Under the pieces are notes generated by a model. It was not told the DNA's origin, did not search any database, and saw only the letters and a program-made list of their open reading frames with translations. Positions 56,256-63,180 of a DNA stretch of 64,000 nucleotides are shown in pieces. The position numbers were made by a program, and so were the translations under genes. Within the stretch, counting starts at the first letter, position 1; each line of letters opens with the position of its first letter. The stretch is taken from the NCBI RefSeq assembly GCF_009712225.1, contig NZ_WASP01000019.1, positions 44,770-108,769 of the forward strand, written 5' to 3'. The stretch comes from Desulfovibrio sp. Its GTDB lineage: Bacteria > Desulfobacterota > Desulfovibrionia > Desulfovibrionales > Desulfovibrionaceae.

Positions 56256-57314
56256 CTAGAAGTTGATGATGACCTGTTCCTGGGCGTCATCCTTGGAGCG
56301 GCGGGCTATGTCGCCTATGCACCAGGCCCGCAGTTTGAAGGCCTGGATGCGGCTGATGGCTTCCTCGGCCTGATCGGCGGGCACAACCAGCACAAAGCCG
56401 ATGCCGCCGTTGAAGATTTGCAGAATTTCAGGCCAGCTGAGGTTGCCCGCTTCCTTGAGCCAGTTGAAGACCGGGGCCATCTGCCAGCTGCCAAAATTAA
56501 TGCGCGCTTCCACCTGTGCGGGCAGCACACGGGGAATATTGTCGTAAAAGCCGCCGCCCGTGATGTGGGCCATGCCCTTGACGTTCATGTCGCGCAGCAG
56601 GGGACGCACCGCTTCCACATAGATGGTGGTGGGTGTCAGCAACACATCGCCAACGGTTGCTCCGTCCGCTCCAGGGAAGGGATCGGTAAGGGCAAGGCCG
56701 CTCTGTTCAAGCACCTTGCGGGCCAGGGAGTAGCCGTTGGAATGCAGGCCGGACGAGGCAATGCCGATGATCTTGTCGCCCACCTGAATGCCGGAGCCGT
56801 CGATAAGCTTGGCATTGTCCACAATACCCACGCAGAAACCGGCAAGGTCGTATTCACCGGGCGCGTACATGTCGGGCATTTCGGCGGTTTCGCCGCCGAG
56901 CAGCGCGCAGCCAGCCTGACGGCAGCCTTCGGCCACGCCGCCAATGACGGTCTGGGCCGTTTCTACATCAAGCTTACCGGTGGCAAAATAGTCTAGAAAA
57001 AACAGGGGGTTTGCGCCCTGAACCAGAATGTCGTTGACACTCATGGCCACAAGGTCGATGCCCACGGTATCGTGTTTGTTGCAGGCAAAAGCCACCTTGA
57101 GCTTGGTTCCCACACCGTCGGTGGAAGAAACAAGCACAGGCTCGGTCATGCCGTTGAGGTCAGGCCGGAACAGGCCGCCGAAGCCGCCAATGTCGGAAAT
57201 GACGCCTCTGGTCTGCGTGCTCTGAACCATGCCTTTGATGCGCGAAACAAGTGAGTTTCCCGCCTCGATATCAACGCCTGCCTGGGTGTAGGCTTTTGCG
57301 CGGTCGCTGGACAT
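56256..57314 (-). CDS. purM: Phosphoribosylformylglycinamidine cyclo-ligase (AIR synthetase)
   Basis: Start re-set to the ATG at 57314 after AGGAGG. YTQAGVDIEAGN, STDGVGTKL, DYFATGKL. A strong 10-bp hairpin at 56216-56246 follows the stop. Confidence 0.95.
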   Translation of the reverse strand: MSSDRAKAYTQAGVDIEAGNSLVSRIKGMVQSTQTRGVISDIGGFGGLFRPDLNGMTEPVLVSSTDGVGTKLKVAFACNKHDTVGIDLVAMSVNDILVQGANPLFFLDYFATGKLDVETAQTVIGGVAEGCRQAGCALLGGETAEMPDMYAPGEYDLAGFCVGIVDNAKLIDGSGIQVGDKIIGIASSGLHSNGYSLARKVLEQSGLALTDPFPGADGATVGDVLLTPTTIYVEAVRPLLRDMNVKGMAHITGGGFYDNIPRVLPAQVEARINFGSWQMAPVFNWLKEAGNLSWPEILQIFNGGIGFVLVVPADQAEEAISRIQAFKLRAWCIGDIARRSKDDAQEQVIINF

Positions 57315-57457
57315 CCGATGCCTCCTTTGAATCTGCGCTACATAACACAGCTTCGGCCAAACCCCAAGCGACTTTTTGAGGCTCTTCCCGCGAGTTTTTT
57401 CATAGACCGCCCTTGTCACCGCTGGTAGAATGGGACCGGAGGGGAAAGGAGCGTGCC

Positions 57458-58555
57458 ATGCGTGGATATGCCAGTCTGTATTTTTTCTGCGCCGTACTGA
57501 CGTTCGTTTCTCCTGCTGCGCCCAATGCGGCAGAAAACGCAGCAGAATACCGCGCGCCTGTTGCCGGGGCAAAGCTTGGGCCTGTTGCGCCTGTGCAGCC
57601 TGCCCCGCAAGCCCAGCCAGGCCAACAGGGCAACGCCGCCGCACAGGCGGCGGGGCAACCGTCTCAGGCAGGCGGTTTGGCTGCTGCCCAGAACCAGAAT
57701 GCCCCTTACACCGGCGGGCAAAATCCGCCGTCCGGCCAACCTTCGGCCCCCATGCAGCCCGGCACGGCAGGTGCGCCTGCGCCGTGGCCTTCCGGGGGCA
57801 TGATGCCCTATTCATCCATTGGCGGGCTGCCAGCGACGGCCCCACAGCCCGATGCTTCCGGTATGCCTGCTGCGGCCCAGGCTCCCGATACGCCAGCCGC
57901 ACCCGGCTATGACCCCGGTTACGCGCCGTACCCGCCTGCCCCATATCCCGCGAACCCGTATCCGGCGGGCCAGTACCCCGCTGCTCCATACCCTTCTGCA
58001 CCGTATTCAGGCGGGCAGGGGGGCGATGCCGTGTACGGCACAAGCCAGCTACAGGGCGAAAATTTCAACGACAGGGGCCTCGCTACCCAGTATCGTGACC
58101 CACAAACTGGCGATATTGTTACTTCTGTTGTTCCACCCAGCCCGCCAGAGCAGCAGAACTACGGTACCATCTTTGTGGCCCCCCAAATTTACCCCGATGG
58201 CAACAACTGGGGCGGCAACCCCTATGGCCCCATGCCCAGACCCGGCCAACCCTACATGCAGCCCCCGGTCATGTGGCAGCCGCCCCCGCAGTATGTCAGA
58301 CCAGCCGACCCTGACCGGCATCGGCATTCTGACCGCAGGCATGATGACCGCCGACATGACGACAGGTATGATGGCCGTTACAATGGCACGCCACCGCCTC
58401 CGCCTCCGAACCAGGGCCAGTATCCGGGCCAGTACCCGGGGCAGCATGATTTCCGCGGCGGAGACAGGTACGACTCTCGGCAGGGCCCGCAGGGCAATTC
58501 AACGTATGACCAGCGCGATGCAGACAGAAGCCGCGATGGAAGGGAGAGGCGGTAA
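57458..58555 (+). CDS. Exported proline/glutamine/tyrosine-rich protein with a His/Asp/Arg-rich C-terminus
   Basis: The ATG at 57458 follows GGAAAGGAG. Hydrophobic N-terminus MRGYASLYFFCAVLTFVSPAAPNA. PYP-type repeats. C-terminal DRHRHSDRRHDDRRHDDRYDGRY. Confidence 0.65.
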   Translation: MRGYASLYFFCAVLTFVSPAAPNAAENAAEYRAPVAGAKLGPVAPVQPAPQAQPGQQGNAAAQAAGQPSQAGGLAAAQNQNAPYTGGQNPPSGQPSAPMQPGTAGAPAPWPSGGMMPYSSIGGLPATAPQPDASGMPAAAQAPDTPAAPGYDPGYAPYPPAPYPANPYPAGQYPAAPYPSAPYSGGQGGDAVYGTSQLQGENFNDRGLATQYRDPQTGDIVTSVVPPSPPEQQNYGTIFVAPQIYPDGNNWGGNPYGPMPRPGQPYMQPPVMWQPPPQYVRPADPDRHRHSDRRHDDRRHDDRYDGRYNGTPPPPPPNQGQYPGQYPGQHDFRGGDRYDSRQGPQGNSTYDQRDADRSRDGRERR

Positions 58556-58557
58556 GC

Positions 58558-59562
58558 ATGCTTGCAGCTCTGTGGGATAGCCAGCCTGACGGTTCCGTAT
58601 TGTGCCGCCTGTGCGCGCACCGCTGTCGCATACGCAATGGTGCCAAGGGCATTTGCGGGGTGCGTGTAAACATGCGCGGCAAGCTGGTTTCGCTGGTCAG
58701 TCAGGTTGTGACGGCCGCGGCCATGGATCCGGTGGAAAAAAAGCCCCTGTACCATTTTTTGCCCGGTACCAGAATTTTTTCTGTGGGCAGTGCCGGATGT
58801 AATTTTTCCTGCAAATTTTGTCAGAACAGCAACATAGCGCATGTGCCCGAAAACGGCATGGTTCCGGGCAAGCGGGCCGCCCCGGAGGATCTGCTGCTGC
58901 TTGCCCAGAGCAATCACGCCCAGTCCATGGCCTTTACCTACAACGAACCCACGGTTTTTTTTGAGCTGCTGTACGAAACAGCGGGCATGGCCCTCAAAAA
59001 GGGCATTCGCAGCGTTCTGGTGACCAACGGCTACATGTCCAAGGATTGTCTGGCGGCCCTGAGCCGATGTATATGCGCGGCCAATGTGGATCTGAAGTCG
59101 TTTCGCGATGATTTTTACCGCAAGTATTGCGGGGCGCGCCTGCAACCTGTGCTTGAAAGCCTGAAGACCATCAAGAAAATGGGCTGGTGGCTTGAGGTTA
59201 CAACTCTGATTATTCCCGGTGTCAACGACGGAGCGGAAGAGCTGGCGGAGCTGGCAGCGTTTATTCGCGACGAGCTCGGGCCCGATACTCCTTGGCATGT
59301 TTCGGGTTTTCATGGCGCGCACTTGATGATCGACCACCCGGACACGCCTCTGGCCACACTGGAGAAAACCTGGAGCATCGGGCGTCAGGCCGGTTTGCAG
59401 TATGTGTATATTGGTAATGCCCGCAGCGCTCTTGGCAGCAACACGTTTTGCCCCGCTTGTGGGGCTGTGGTTGTGGAACGCGACATGTATGACACGCGAC
59501 TACGCTCGGTGGAGGGAAAATGCCCCTCGTGCGGCGTGCAGATTCCGGGAGTCTGGAAATAA
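58558..59562 (+). CDS. AmmeMemoRadiSam-system-type radical SAM enzyme (PflA-like activase fold)
   Basis: N-terminal CRLCAHRCRIRNGAKGICGVR, DPVEKKPLYHFLPG, and radical SAM cluster CNFSCKFC (Cx3Cx2C). Starts 2 nt after the upstream stop. Confidence 0.88.
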   Translation: MLAALWDSQPDGSVLCRLCAHRCRIRNGAKGICGVRVNMRGKLVSLVSQVVTAAAMDPVEKKPLYHFLPGTRIFSVGSAGCNFSCKFCQNSNIAHVPENGMVPGKRAAPEDLLLLAQSNHAQSMAFTYNEPTVFFELLYETAGMALKKGIRSVLVTNGYMSKDCLAALSRCICAANVDLKSFRDDFYRKYCGARLQPVLESLKTIKKMGWWLEVTTLIIPGVNDGAEELAELAAFIRDELGPDTPWHVSGFHGAHLMIDHPDTPLATLEKTWSIGRQAGLQYVYIGNARSALGSNTFCPACGAVVVERDMYDTRLRSVEGKCPSCGVQIPGVWK

Positions 59563-60065
59563 TGATTCTTGTGTACACAGGTGACGGCAAAGGTAAAACA
59601 AGTGCCTGCGTGGGCCAGACCGTGCGCGCCCTTGGACAGAATATGACGGTGGCTTTTGGGCAGTTCATGAAGCGCGACGGGCAGGCGGGCGAACAGGCAA
59701 TGCTGGCGCGACTGCTGGGTGACCGTTTTCTGGCTGGCGGGCTGGGTTTTTTGCGCAACGATGCGGATCGACCCTCGCACCGGCAGGCGGCCCTGCGTGT
59801 GCTTGAATGGGCGCAGGCGCAGCTTGAGCAGGTGGATATGCTGGTGCTGGACGAAAGCCTGTATGCGCTTGGTTCTGGCATTGTTGAAAGGCAGGAACTG
59901 GAGCAGCTCATGGCGGCGGCGCGCTCCCGGAGGCGGCATCTGGTGCTCTCTGGCCGCAATGCGCCCGACTGGCTGGTGGAGGCGGCGGATCTGGTCACCT
60001 CCATGACGGAGATCAAACATCCCTGGCGCACGGGCGTAAAGGCCGCGCCGGGCATAGAATTTTAG
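59562..60065 (+). CDS. cobO: Cob(I)yrinic acid a,c-diamide adenosyltransferase (CobO/BtuR type)
   Basis: The ATG shares one base with the upstream TAA (TAATG). VYTGDGKGKTSA P-loop, MLVLDE, and C-terminal KHPWRTGVKAAPGIEF parallel E. coli BtuR. Confidence 0.92.
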   Translation: MILVYTGDGKGKTSACVGQTVRALGQNMTVAFGQFMKRDGQAGEQAMLARLLGDRFLAGGLGFLRNDADRPSHRQAALRVLEWAQAQLEQVDMLVLDESLYALGSGIVERQELEQLMAAARSRRRHLVLSGRNAPDWLVEAADLVTSMTEIKHPWRTGVKAAPGIEF

Positions 60066-60096
60066 GCTGCCCGCATCTGCAAAGGAACACCATCCA

Positions 60097-60600
60097 ATGG
60101 CCCAGTTGACCATTTACGTTGCCGGATCGTTCAAACACAAACATGGGGTGCGCCTGTTGGGGCGCGAATTGCGGGCCATGGGCTGCCGCATGCTGGACTG
60201 GACAGACAAGGCCGTGCCGCCGCCGGGGCTTACCCCTGCCGAGCGGCGTATCTGGATGGATACCGACCGCGACGGCGGCGAAGTGTACGCCTTTTGCCAC
60301 CACGCCTGCCTGACGGCGGACATGGTGATTTATTACGGCGCTTCGGGACAGGATGCCGGAGTTGAGGTGGGGCTGGCCGCCGGTGCCGGGGTGCCCCTGC
60401 TGGGCATACGCGGGCCGCTCGAGGGCCCTGGGCTCATGCTGCACGGCGCGGTAAACGGCTGGGTCGACAGCGTGGAAGATGCGCTGGAAACTGTGGCAGC
60501 CCTGCTGGCCTACGCGACTAACGGCTGGAAGGGCTTTGAGGCCGAGAGCAACCCCGTGCTGTGCCGGCTTGGCGCAAAACTGCGGGAGCGGCTGGCCTGA
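60097..60600 (+). CDS. Hypothetical protein, tentatively nucleoside 2-deoxyribosyltransferase-like fold
   Basis: N-terminal IYVAGSF and later GASGQDAGVEVGLAAGAGVP resemble the YxAGPxF ... E-containing pattern of the deoxyribosyltransferase-like superfamily. Weak call. Confidence 0.45.
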   Translation: MAQLTIYVAGSFKHKHGVRLLGRELRAMGCRMLDWTDKAVPPPGLTPAERRIWMDTDRDGGEVYAFCHHACLTADMVIYYGASGQDAGVEVGLAAGAGVPLLGIRGPLEGPGLMLHGAVNGWVDSVEDALETVAALLAYATNGWKGFEAESNPVLCRLGAKLRERLA

Positions 60601-60725
60601 CCTGACACCACATTGCTCATGCCTGCGCGGCCCCAAGTGTTCTCATCATATTTTTTTCAGCGCATGACAAAGCCCCCAAAACAGTTTCTGTCTTGGGGGC
60701 TGATTTGTTTATGCAAAAGGGTTTG

Positions 60726-61415
60726 CTACGGCAGGTCGCGCGATTCCACGTCGCCCGATTTACCGCCACTGCTGGCAGGTTTGCCATAGCTTGGCGTGCT
60801 GCCACCCGAGGGTTCCATGCTGCCGTCCATGGGGCTAACCCCCGATGCGTGTTCTGGTCGCATGTTGTCAAGCTGGCCTGCCTTCTGGGGCAGCATGAGG
60901 TAACTTGTAACCGCAGTTACGCCAGCAACTCCACGCGCGGCCTGTATGGCAAGCTGTTTTTCCGACTCATCCTTGACCACGCCCAGCAGAACAACGCGGC
61001 CCGAATTGACCTCTGTGTCAATGCGGGTGGACGAAAGCCCCTTGGTGCCAATGAGGTCTTTACGCAGCTTGGTAGCCAGCACAAAATTGCTGGTGTCGCT
61101 GGTGGCGGGGGTAAACCAGTGCGTGGTGACCGAGCGGGGTTTGTAGCGGTTGGCGATGGTCACAGCCTTGCCCTGCATGTGATCGGGCACTTCGCCCACT
61201 AGGAACACGTGGCCGTAGAAGCTGTATACTGCCACAGACCAGCCGCCAGAGAAGCTTTCATCCAGCAGGGCTGTTTTGATTTTTGCGGAGAGTTCCTTAT
61301 CGTCCGACATGGTTCCCATAAGCCGCTGGTCGTCATAGATGGAATATCCGGTGTAGGCGCAACCGTTAATAAGCGTCATGGAAAGCAGCAGCAAAAGAAG
61401 AGCAAGTCGTTTCAT
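60726..61415 (-). CDS. BON-domain lipoprotein (OsmY/DolP-like)
   Basis: The ATG at 61415 follows AGGAGG. Lipobox LINGC. Two BON-like segments (..VYSFYGHVFLVGEV.., ..VNSGRVVLLGVV..). Disordered Ser/Gly/Pro tail. Confidence 0.8.
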   Translation of the reverse strand: MKRLALLLLLLSMTLINGCAYTGYSIYDDQRLMGTMSDDKELSAKIKTALLDESFSGGWSVAVYSFYGHVFLVGEVPDHMQGKAVTIANRYKPRSVTTHWFTPATSDTSNFVLATKLRKDLIGTKGLSSTRIDTEVNSGRVVLLGVVKDESEKQLAIQAARGVAGVTAVTSYLMLPQKAGQLDNMRPEHASGVSPMDGSMEPSGGSTPSYGKPASSGGKSGDVESRDLP

Positions 61416-62990: not shown

Positions 62991-63067
62991 GGCGGAAGTA
63001 GCTCAGTAGGTAGAGCACCTGGTTGTGGCCCAGGTGGCCGTGGGTTCAAGTCCCATCTTTCGCCCCA
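62991..63067 (+). tRNA. tRNA-His (anticodon GTG) with encoded G-1 and CCA
   Basis: G-1 pairs with C73. Acceptor GCGGAAG/CTTTCGC, anticodon stem CCTGG/CCAGG with loop TTGTGGC, T loop TTCAAGT. Confidence 0.95.
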
Positions 63068-63103: not shown

Positions 63104-63180
63104 CGGAGCGTGGCGCAGCCTGGTAGCGCACCTGCTTTGGGAGCAGGAAGTCGCTGGTTCGAATCCAGTCGCTCCGACCA
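63104..63180 (+). tRNA. tRNA-Pro (anticodon TGG), CCA encoded
   Basis: Acceptor CGGAGCG/CGCTCCG, D arm GCGC/GCGC, anticodon stem CCTGC/GCAGG with loop TTTGGGA (G37), T loop TTCGAAT. Confidence 0.95.

Follow-up and report, generated by a model that had tools for sequence, protein, structure and literature searches.

An AmmeMemoRadiSam enzyme and its conserved neighbour, a putatively exported and predicted-disordered protein, in Desulfovibrionaceae

Here we have analysed a stretch of 64,000 nucleotides (nt) from the Desulfovibrio sp. assembly GCF_009712225.1 (contig NZ_WASP01000019.1, positions 44,770 to 108,769 of the forward strand; hereafter the window, with positions counted from its first letter), in which a gene for a radical S-adenosylmethionine (SAM) enzyme, referred to as rSAM, directly follows a gene for a proline-rich protein, referred to as X. 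The rSAM itself adds a new member to an already known family, and its pairing with X is real and conserved in the Desulfovibrio-type lineage; that X is a substrate of the enzyme, as a first-pass annotation of the window had suggested, is only possible. With moderate confidence, we favour a reading in which the locus is a lineage-inherited operon that joins a housekeeping rSAM to a clade-specific secreted disordered protein.

The AMMECR1/Memo/rSAM system, to which the enzyme belongs, extends from archaea to bacteria and has human homologues of two of its components, yet it has no known chemistry; it is widespread, its function is unknown, and the accounts cited here offer predictions only (PMC2034487; PMC7159879). 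AMMECR1, the rSAM and a Memo-type dioxygenase-like protein have been placed in one predicted pathway, perhaps for RNA base modification (PMC2034487), and a second account, citing Burroughs 2019, likewise describes one predicted pathway of unknown chemistry (PMC7159879). A strictly conserved, translationally coupled neighbour is a potential lead to the substrate of the rSAM, and X, were it truly a client, would provide the system with its first concrete protein substrate. The remaining value is modest: an undescribed small family of putatively secreted proteins with a sharply conserved 45-residue hairpin motif, and a conserved purM/X-rSAM-cobO block in Desulfovibrionaceae, including relatives of the human-gut species D. 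piger and D. desulfuricans.

A canonical AmmeMemoRadiSam enzyme

The rSAM gene (58558..59562, + strand) encodes 334 amino acids (aa) and, judged by its profile scores, is a canonical AmmeMemoRadiSam radical SAM enzyme. Classification with hidden Markov models (HMMs) gives 345.9 bits against TIGR04337 (E 2e-103, residues 5-333 of 334; curated cutoff 220) and 72.5 bits against PF04055 (5.9e-20), and the next best models, those of glycyl-radical activases, reach 46.8-50 bits against cutoffs of 174-250; the first-pass assignment to the AmmeMemoRadiSam type and not to PflA is thereby borne out. The StsB model scores 18 bits (cutoff 625). PflA-type activases, which act on protein substrates, are the closest characterised relatives of the enzyme (TIGR02494, TIGR02493 and YjjW at E 1e-13 to 1e-12), and the nearest solved structure is that of PflA (PDB 3C8F), matched at only E 5.6e-4. 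The window enzyme differs from these activases in its extra four-Cys sites, one near each terminus; its neighbourhood encodes no glycyl radical enzyme, and X contains no glycyl-radical motif. A role as glycyl-radical enzyme activase (PflA/PFLE_PFLC/YjjW) was rejected on the scores below cutoff and the lack of such a partner among the neighbours.

The radical SAM cluster motif, CX3CX2C, reads CNFSCKFC (C81/C85/C88), and the further four-Cys sites comprise C16/C19/C23/C33 near the N-terminus and C298/C301/C322/C325 near the C-terminus. Weak zinc-ribbon Pfam matches fall on residues 295-328, and Fer4_12 is also matched. In 77 of 77 sequences (the window enzyme and 76 homologues from related loci, which represent several phyla and share its length), all 11 cysteines of the three sites are retained, so that we see no sign of lineage specialisation in the enzyme. 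Relatives within TIGR04337 occur at 42-49% identity in Aquificota, Campylobacterota, WOR-3 and others, and homologues in Aquificota, Campylobacterota and others are encoded without X.

Modification of a protein before its export by an enzyme encoded in an adjacent gene has precedent in the anSME/AtsB-sulfatase and QhpD-QhpC pairs and in the rSAM-precursor pairs of ribosomally synthesized and post-translationally modified peptides (RiPPs). The anSME/AtsB, QhpD and RiPP enzymes carry SPASM/twitch auxiliary-cluster domains, often with a peptide-recognition element, whereas the Pfam scan of the window rSAM found no SPASM, twitch, peptide-recognition (RRE) or B12-binding domain. RiPP precursors are, furthermore, short cytoplasmic leader peptides, in contrast to an X family of 109-436 aa with a predicted Sec-type signal peptide. 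A RiPP/SPASM-type peptide modifier was likewise discarded as a candidate, given no SPASM/RRE match and a 365-aa neighbour with a Sec-like signal.

Gene X is a real, fast-evolving gene

Gene X (57458..58555, + strand; ATG at 57458, TAA at 58553-58555) encodes a putatively exported, largely disordered protein of 365 aa that is rich in Pro, Ala, Gly, Gln and Tyr (P 18%, A 13%, G 12%, Q 10%, Y 7%). The features initially ascribed to it, namely P/Q/A/G/Y repeats, a short ordinary segment and a charged His/Asp/Arg tail, are all present. Repeats of the form APYP..NPYP..GQYP..APYP occupy aa 156-181 and GQYPGQYP lies within aa 320-329; a polyproline run, PPPPPPP, spans aa 312-318, with many further PP/PPP motifs; and the non-repetitive, ordinary segment is aa 191-255. 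The tail reads DRHRH...RRHDDRRHDDRY, and its His/Asp/Arg-rich segment DRHRHSDRRHDDRRHDDRY (aa 286-308; 58313..58381, + strand) is clade-specific, not family-wide. The N-terminus (aa 1-25, MRGYASLYFFCAVLTFVSPAAPNAA; 57458..57532, + strand) consists of MRGY, ASLYFFCAVLTFVSPAAP and NAA, with a basic start, a hydrophobic window of 1.8-2.4 and a small-residue c-region; from this hydrophobicity and the helix that AlphaFold2 (AF2) places at residues 3-17, it looks like a Sec signal peptide.

Pairwise comparisons of X with four relatives give ratios of nonsynonymous to synonymous substitution (dN/dS) of 0.18-0.21, against 0.06-0.10 for rSAM; the 27-77 gap columns that separate X from these relatives are all in frame, and the reading frame is kept in ~35 loci. 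On this evidence X is a real, fast-evolving gene, and with its signal-like N-terminus the upstream open reading frame (ORF) stands as the genuine exported-protein gene for which it had been taken. The length of the ORF alone would be uninformative, because the DNA is 60% GC and overlapping ORFs of 132-595 aa occupy other frames of the same stretch. Two such spurious ORFs lie over X: one of 595 aa (56256-58043, - strand), formed where the purM frame stays open for 730 nt upstream of its true start, and one of 253 aa in a second + frame (57819-58580, + strand). Both are typical of 60% GC DNA and a potential trap for gene callers.

Metatranscriptome contigs from wastewater and sludge cover X at 57681-57930 (99% identical, 2 differences), and one contig bridges the X/rSAM junction (58478-58622); these contigs are few and of low depth, with DNA carry-over possible, and they hint at a common X/rSAM transcript. 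The exact sequence of the window protein has no record in the gene-position index.

A small family with a single conserved hairpin

X has no match in Pfam, NCBIfam or PDB. A word-indexed search returned 25 relatives, and an exhaustive HMM search of 1.84 billion representatives with the 64-aa core of X returned 37 proteins only at E<=1e-3; the best family matches of this HMM reach E 4.5e-35, and the window X is the top scorer of the core HMMs. An initial profile search based on the core alignment was partly circular, the Salidesulfovibrio-type contig L020 having been included in the profile. The family appears to be small, restricted to Desulfovibrionaceae and undescribed, with no model in any of these three databases, and the lengths given above hold for all members barring one marginal match of 2656 aa.

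Alignments and HMM agree on one family-wide conserved segment, the core at aa 191-255 (58028..58222, + strand). Its motif of ~45 aa, drawn from 37 aligned sequences, is G..[WY]RDPxTGDI[IV]TSVx[PA]P, followed after 8-14 residues by [IV][FY][VI]xPQ[IV]xP, and in the window the core includes the peptide GLATQYRDPQTGDIVTSVVPPSPP. Only D, G, D, P and P are invariant, with T, V and G nearly so, and the alignment contains no conserved Cys, Tyr or His. The AF2 model of X has a mean predicted local distance difference test (pLDDT) of 52; with the family alignment as input, AF2 returns the signal helix and one hairpin, the remainder falling below confidence. The predicted beta-hairpin pairs aa 208-213 with aa 220-225 (58079..58132, + strand; pLDDT 85-91) around the invariant DPxTGD turn, and X is thus predicted to be mostly disordered, the hairpin alone being modelled with confidence in the mature protein. 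A hydrophobic N-terminal segment after R/K recurs in nearly all of the 36 aligned homologues, and those without it (e.g., P0027, P0160) seem to be truncated at the N-terminus.

Outside the core, the family is variable low-complexity sequence. D. desulfuricans-type members combine PQAGY repeats with the H/D/R tail, and others have G/W/P-rich tails; the D. piger-type members (L011, L013-L015, L017; e.g., L013:5111-5884) end in 6-9 tandem RPPRPP[HY]W[DN]xGx units (RPPRPPHWDQG), His/Trp/Pro repeats that we take to recall, loosely, metal-binding octarepeats. P0177 and P0183, at 109 and 116 aa, are almost tail-less. The Pro/Tyr repeats and the His/Asp/Arg tail had been put forward as targets of modification, a proposal that finds no support: since repeats and tail are variable and some members of 109-116 aa have almost no tail, these are not the conserved part of X, which is the ~45-aa hairpin motif only. 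As far as the alignments tell, the Pro/Tyr/Gln repeats and the tail rich in His/Asp/Arg amount to filler that evolves fast and is specific to each lineage. In one metagenome contig (L091:1258-2427, = P0022) X is frameshifted right after the core, and the shifted frame enters rSAM by 32 nt; either the sequence is in error here or the contig represents a natural variant without the normal tail, and in the latter case it would fit a dispensable tail.

Among known systems, X shares with Pro-rich envelope proteins that span the periplasm or are disordered (the TonB linker, for instance) a hydrophobic N-terminus, Pro-rich low-complexity stretches and predicted disorder. There is, however, no sequence or domain relationship to such proteins: X lacks the TonB C-terminal domain and has its own novel ~45-aa hairpin motif.

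A conserved neighbourhood of X, rSAM, purM and cobO

The junctions of the window locus are tight, just as originally described. The rSAM ATG (58558) lies 2 nt past the X stop, its Shine-Dalgarno-like sequence GGGAGAGG (58542..58549, + strand) falls within the final codons of X, and the final A of its TAA (59560-59562) is also the A of the cobO ATG at 59562, a 1-nt overlap. The conserved adjacency of X and rSAM that the first-pass annotation had asked about holds in related genomes, down to 51% rSAM identity. The order purM(-)/X(+)/rSAM(+) is found in every X-family locus with enough flank, ~25 with rSAM on the same contig and ~35 when partial contigs are included (among them L001-L008, L010, L011, L013-L015, L017, L019, L084, L085, L087 and L090-L102).

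The neighbours on either side are equally faithful. The most persistent is purM, which adjoins the rSAM locus wherever a Desulfovibrionaceae contig has sufficient flank, and cobO follows rSAM in all Desulfovibrio-type loci, overlapping or abutting it (0-11 nt). The genes outside purM (YccF, TatD or Asp/Glu racemase) and past cobO vary among loci. Salidesulfovibrio-type loci and those of other phyla have no cobO beside rSAM, and the purM/X/rSAM/cobO neighbourhood is not seen in other phyla; unlike its relatives there, the rSAM of Desulfovibrionaceae is preceded by X and usually followed by cobO. Because purM and cobO are as faithful neighbours of rSAM as X is, with no evident functional tie between purM and cobO, synteny alone does not mark X as a partner of rSAM, and the block behaves as inherited synteny.

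Departures from this arrangement take several forms. In the D. piger group the gap between X and rSAM widens to 114-180 nt, with no terminator match, and the frameshifted contig L091 is a further exception to the spacing. In the Desulfovibrio locus L016, at 59% rSAM identity, 150 nt of intergenic DNA separate purM from rSAM-cobO-p167 and X is missing, and L050 has purM/rSAM, also with no X. Three Salidesulfovibrio-type contigs (L020, L081, L083) encode in the X slot a Thr-rich protein of 117-119 aa with a signal peptide, with unrelated genes downstream. Against HMMs of long X members this protein is not significant (E 0.53 and 1.3; hhalign probability 2%), whereas against short members it reaches an hhalign probability of 87% (E 4e-6), and by this short-member match it is probably a diverged X homologue.

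AMMECR1 and Memo are rarely encoded beside the enzyme

The enzyme had been called an orphan for want of AMMECR1 and Memo partners. Indeed, tblastn with verified TIGR04335 and TIGR04336 proteins as queries (E<=1) found no AMMECR1 or Memo homologue in the 64-kb window; what does not stand is that this is special. A scan of a genome collection gave 80 loci, each with flanks of 6 kb, from Desulfovibrio, further Thermodesulfobacteriota, Aquificota, Campylobacterota, WOR-3 and others. Five of them (L022, L023, L025, L035, L054) carry Memo and/or AMMECR1 no more than 6 kb from rSAM and 75 carry neither, so that the lack of adjacent partners in the window is unremarkable. The probes themselves are valid, since the L054 neighbours exceed the TIGR04335 and TIGR04336 cutoffs. 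Among the relatives the partners are usually encoded apart from rSAM, and the same probably applies to this genome.

Further searches yielded no partner gene from Desulfovibrio. Protein-database matches to verified AMMECR1 proteins, among those listed, were Aquificota and Campylobacterota relatives only, and a scan for a codon-biased LRGCIG DNA pattern gave 49 loci, none relevant. Viral contigs yielded a single unrelated locus of 66% GC with both partners: on the IMG/VR contig L103 (87-1431), classed as viral, Memo and AMMECR1 homologues are adjacent, probably in the host flank of a provirus. Source-run contigs share with L103 only chance matches of 18-22 nt. An 'AmmeMemoRadiSam system protein' has been reported beside a prophage in D. 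piger (PMC12724379), an association that is suggestive only.

A different neighbour recurs in Campylobacterota, where a protein-L-isoaspartate O-methyltransferase (PCMT)-like gene, scoring ~155 bits and under the PCMT equivalog cutoffs, adjoins rSAM in 18 loci (L035, L040, L043, L052, L056, L058, L060, L061, L064-L066, L068, L071, L072 and L077-L080; e.g., L065:6978-7598). It lies upstream of rSAM in some loci, downstream in others and on the opposite strand once. An adjacency that is retained despite such reordering is a better functional hint than synteny of fixed order, and possibly a pointer to protein substrates of the system.

Interpretation of the X-rSAM pair

On the reading that we favour, X, rSAM, cobO and p167 would form a four-gene operon, divergent from purM, that has been inherited in Desulfovibrio-type sulfate reducers. 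The rSAM, presumably a cytoplasmic enzyme with a PflA-like core, would most likely do the same job as its orthologues in many phyla, acting with AMMECR1 and Memo encoded elsewhere in the genome. X would be exported through Sec and would most likely act in the cell envelope by way of its short conserved motif, which could, for instance, dock onto a partner through strand addition. The 2-nt spacing and the embedded ribosome-binding site would give co-expression of X and rSAM, and their closeness would reflect compact operon architecture, like the 1-nt rSAM/cobO overlap, with no enzyme-substrate relation.

Several observations weigh against this reading. X lies directly upstream of rSAM in all of the ~35 loci with readable context and was seen nowhere else, and in every clade except the D. 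piger group the X stop and the start of rSAM are -4 to +3 nt apart. The layout persists down to 51% rSAM identity while the outer genes have changed, and in Salidesulfovibrio-type genomes the X-slot protein sits 8-19 nt before rSAM though cobO is absent. No Desulfovibrio AMMECR1 or Memo gene came from the protein search, the viral contigs or the source-run contigs. Finally, a cytoplasmic rSAM can modify proteins that are exported later, as anSME does with sulfatases and QhpD with QhpC.

The strongest alternative is that rSAM and X are enzyme and client, X being a lineage-specific substrate or partner that is modified in the cytoplasm before Sec export. The strict co-localisation throughout the X family, its absence away from rSAM and the retention of the pair in Salidesulfovibrio-type genomes without cobO all speak for this possibility, as do the kinship of rSAM with protein-activating PflA-type enzymes and the hint of protein substrates from the PCMT-like gene often found beside rSAM in Campylobacterota. 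If the two do form such a pair, the modification has to fall on the conserved hairpin core (WRDPxTGDIxTSV...PQIxP) and not on the Pro/Tyr repeats; however, that core has no conserved Cys, Tyr, His or redox-type residue. The enzyme family is, moreover, far broader than X, its invariant sites show no lineage-specific change, and the window member has no peptide-recognition or SPASM domain; L016 does without X, the D. piger clade is uncoupled (114-180 nt gap), and purM and cobO are equally syntenic. We consider an enzyme-client relationship unlikely, and we would be rather surprised to find a modification installed on the invariant DPxTGD hairpin of X, or X acting as an obligatory partner.

Tight coupling could also mean that X is mainly a cis-acting, long upstream ORF, in which polyproline translation dependent on elongation factor P (EF-P) sets the expression of rSAM-cobO. 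The 2-nt stop-start spacing, the ribosome-binding site inside X, the many PP/PPP motifs and the freely evolving tails are what such a device might look like, but selection clearly acts at the protein level on the signal peptide and the 45-aa core, short members without Pro-rich tails are equally coupled, and the D. piger clade is not coupled; we hold this explanation to be very improbable. A similarly slim chance goes to the idea that the meaningful link is between rSAM and cobO, through corrinoid metabolism and possibly with purM, leaving X as a passenger. In its favour, the two genes overlap or abut (0-11 nt) throughout the Desulfovibrio-type loci and purM is always adjacent, but cobO is not beside rSAM in Salidesulfovibrio-type loci or other phyla, and the locus has neither a B12-binding domain on rSAM nor a cobalamin riboswitch. 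The weakest explanation, that the Pro-rich ORF is a chance open frame in GC-rich DNA and not a gene, can draw on the long ORFs that overlap it in other frames and on its lack of a Pfam or NCBIfam match, but has virtually no probability left given a dN/dS of ~0.2 in the X frame with all indels in frame, a signal peptide and core motif kept in 37 clusters, and metatranscriptome contigs that cover X; the dN/dS, the family members found by the core HMM and the conserved alignment rule it out.

Flanking genes and signals

Upstream, purM (56256..57314, - strand; start codon CAT at 57312-57314) encodes AIR synthetase, as annotated from its ORF and from AIRS/AIRS_C Pfam matches on the orthologous gene. 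The purM/X intergenic region measures 143 nt and contains, ahead of X, a sequence that resembles a sigma-70 promoter (57403..57431, + strand; TAGACC-17-TAGAAT with a TG; consensus match only).

Downstream, cobO (59562..60065, + strand) encodes a cobO/cobA-type ATP:corrinoid adenosyltransferase that matches PF02572 at 168.6 bits (1.9e-49, positions 4-172 of 172). Its score of 127.4 against TIGR00708 is under the equivalog cutoff of 167.75, which makes it a family member without an equivalog-level call. Next lies p167 (60097..60600, + strand), an ORF for a conserved 167-aa protein found downstream of cobO at 76-98% identity in Desulfovibrio relatives and probably the last gene of the operon. It has no match in Pfam, NCBIfam or PDB, and its N-terminus, TIYVAGSFKHKH, may bear a vague resemblance to nucleoside 2-deoxyribosyltransferase-like folds. 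No riboswitch, cobalamin riboswitches included, and no other Rfam family was found in 56900-60900. A terminator-like hairpin with a T-run follows p167 (60682..60702, + strand; consensus match only), and further downstream, just past murA, the + strand carries tRNA-His(GTG) at 62992-63067 and tRNA-Pro(TGG) at 63104-63180.

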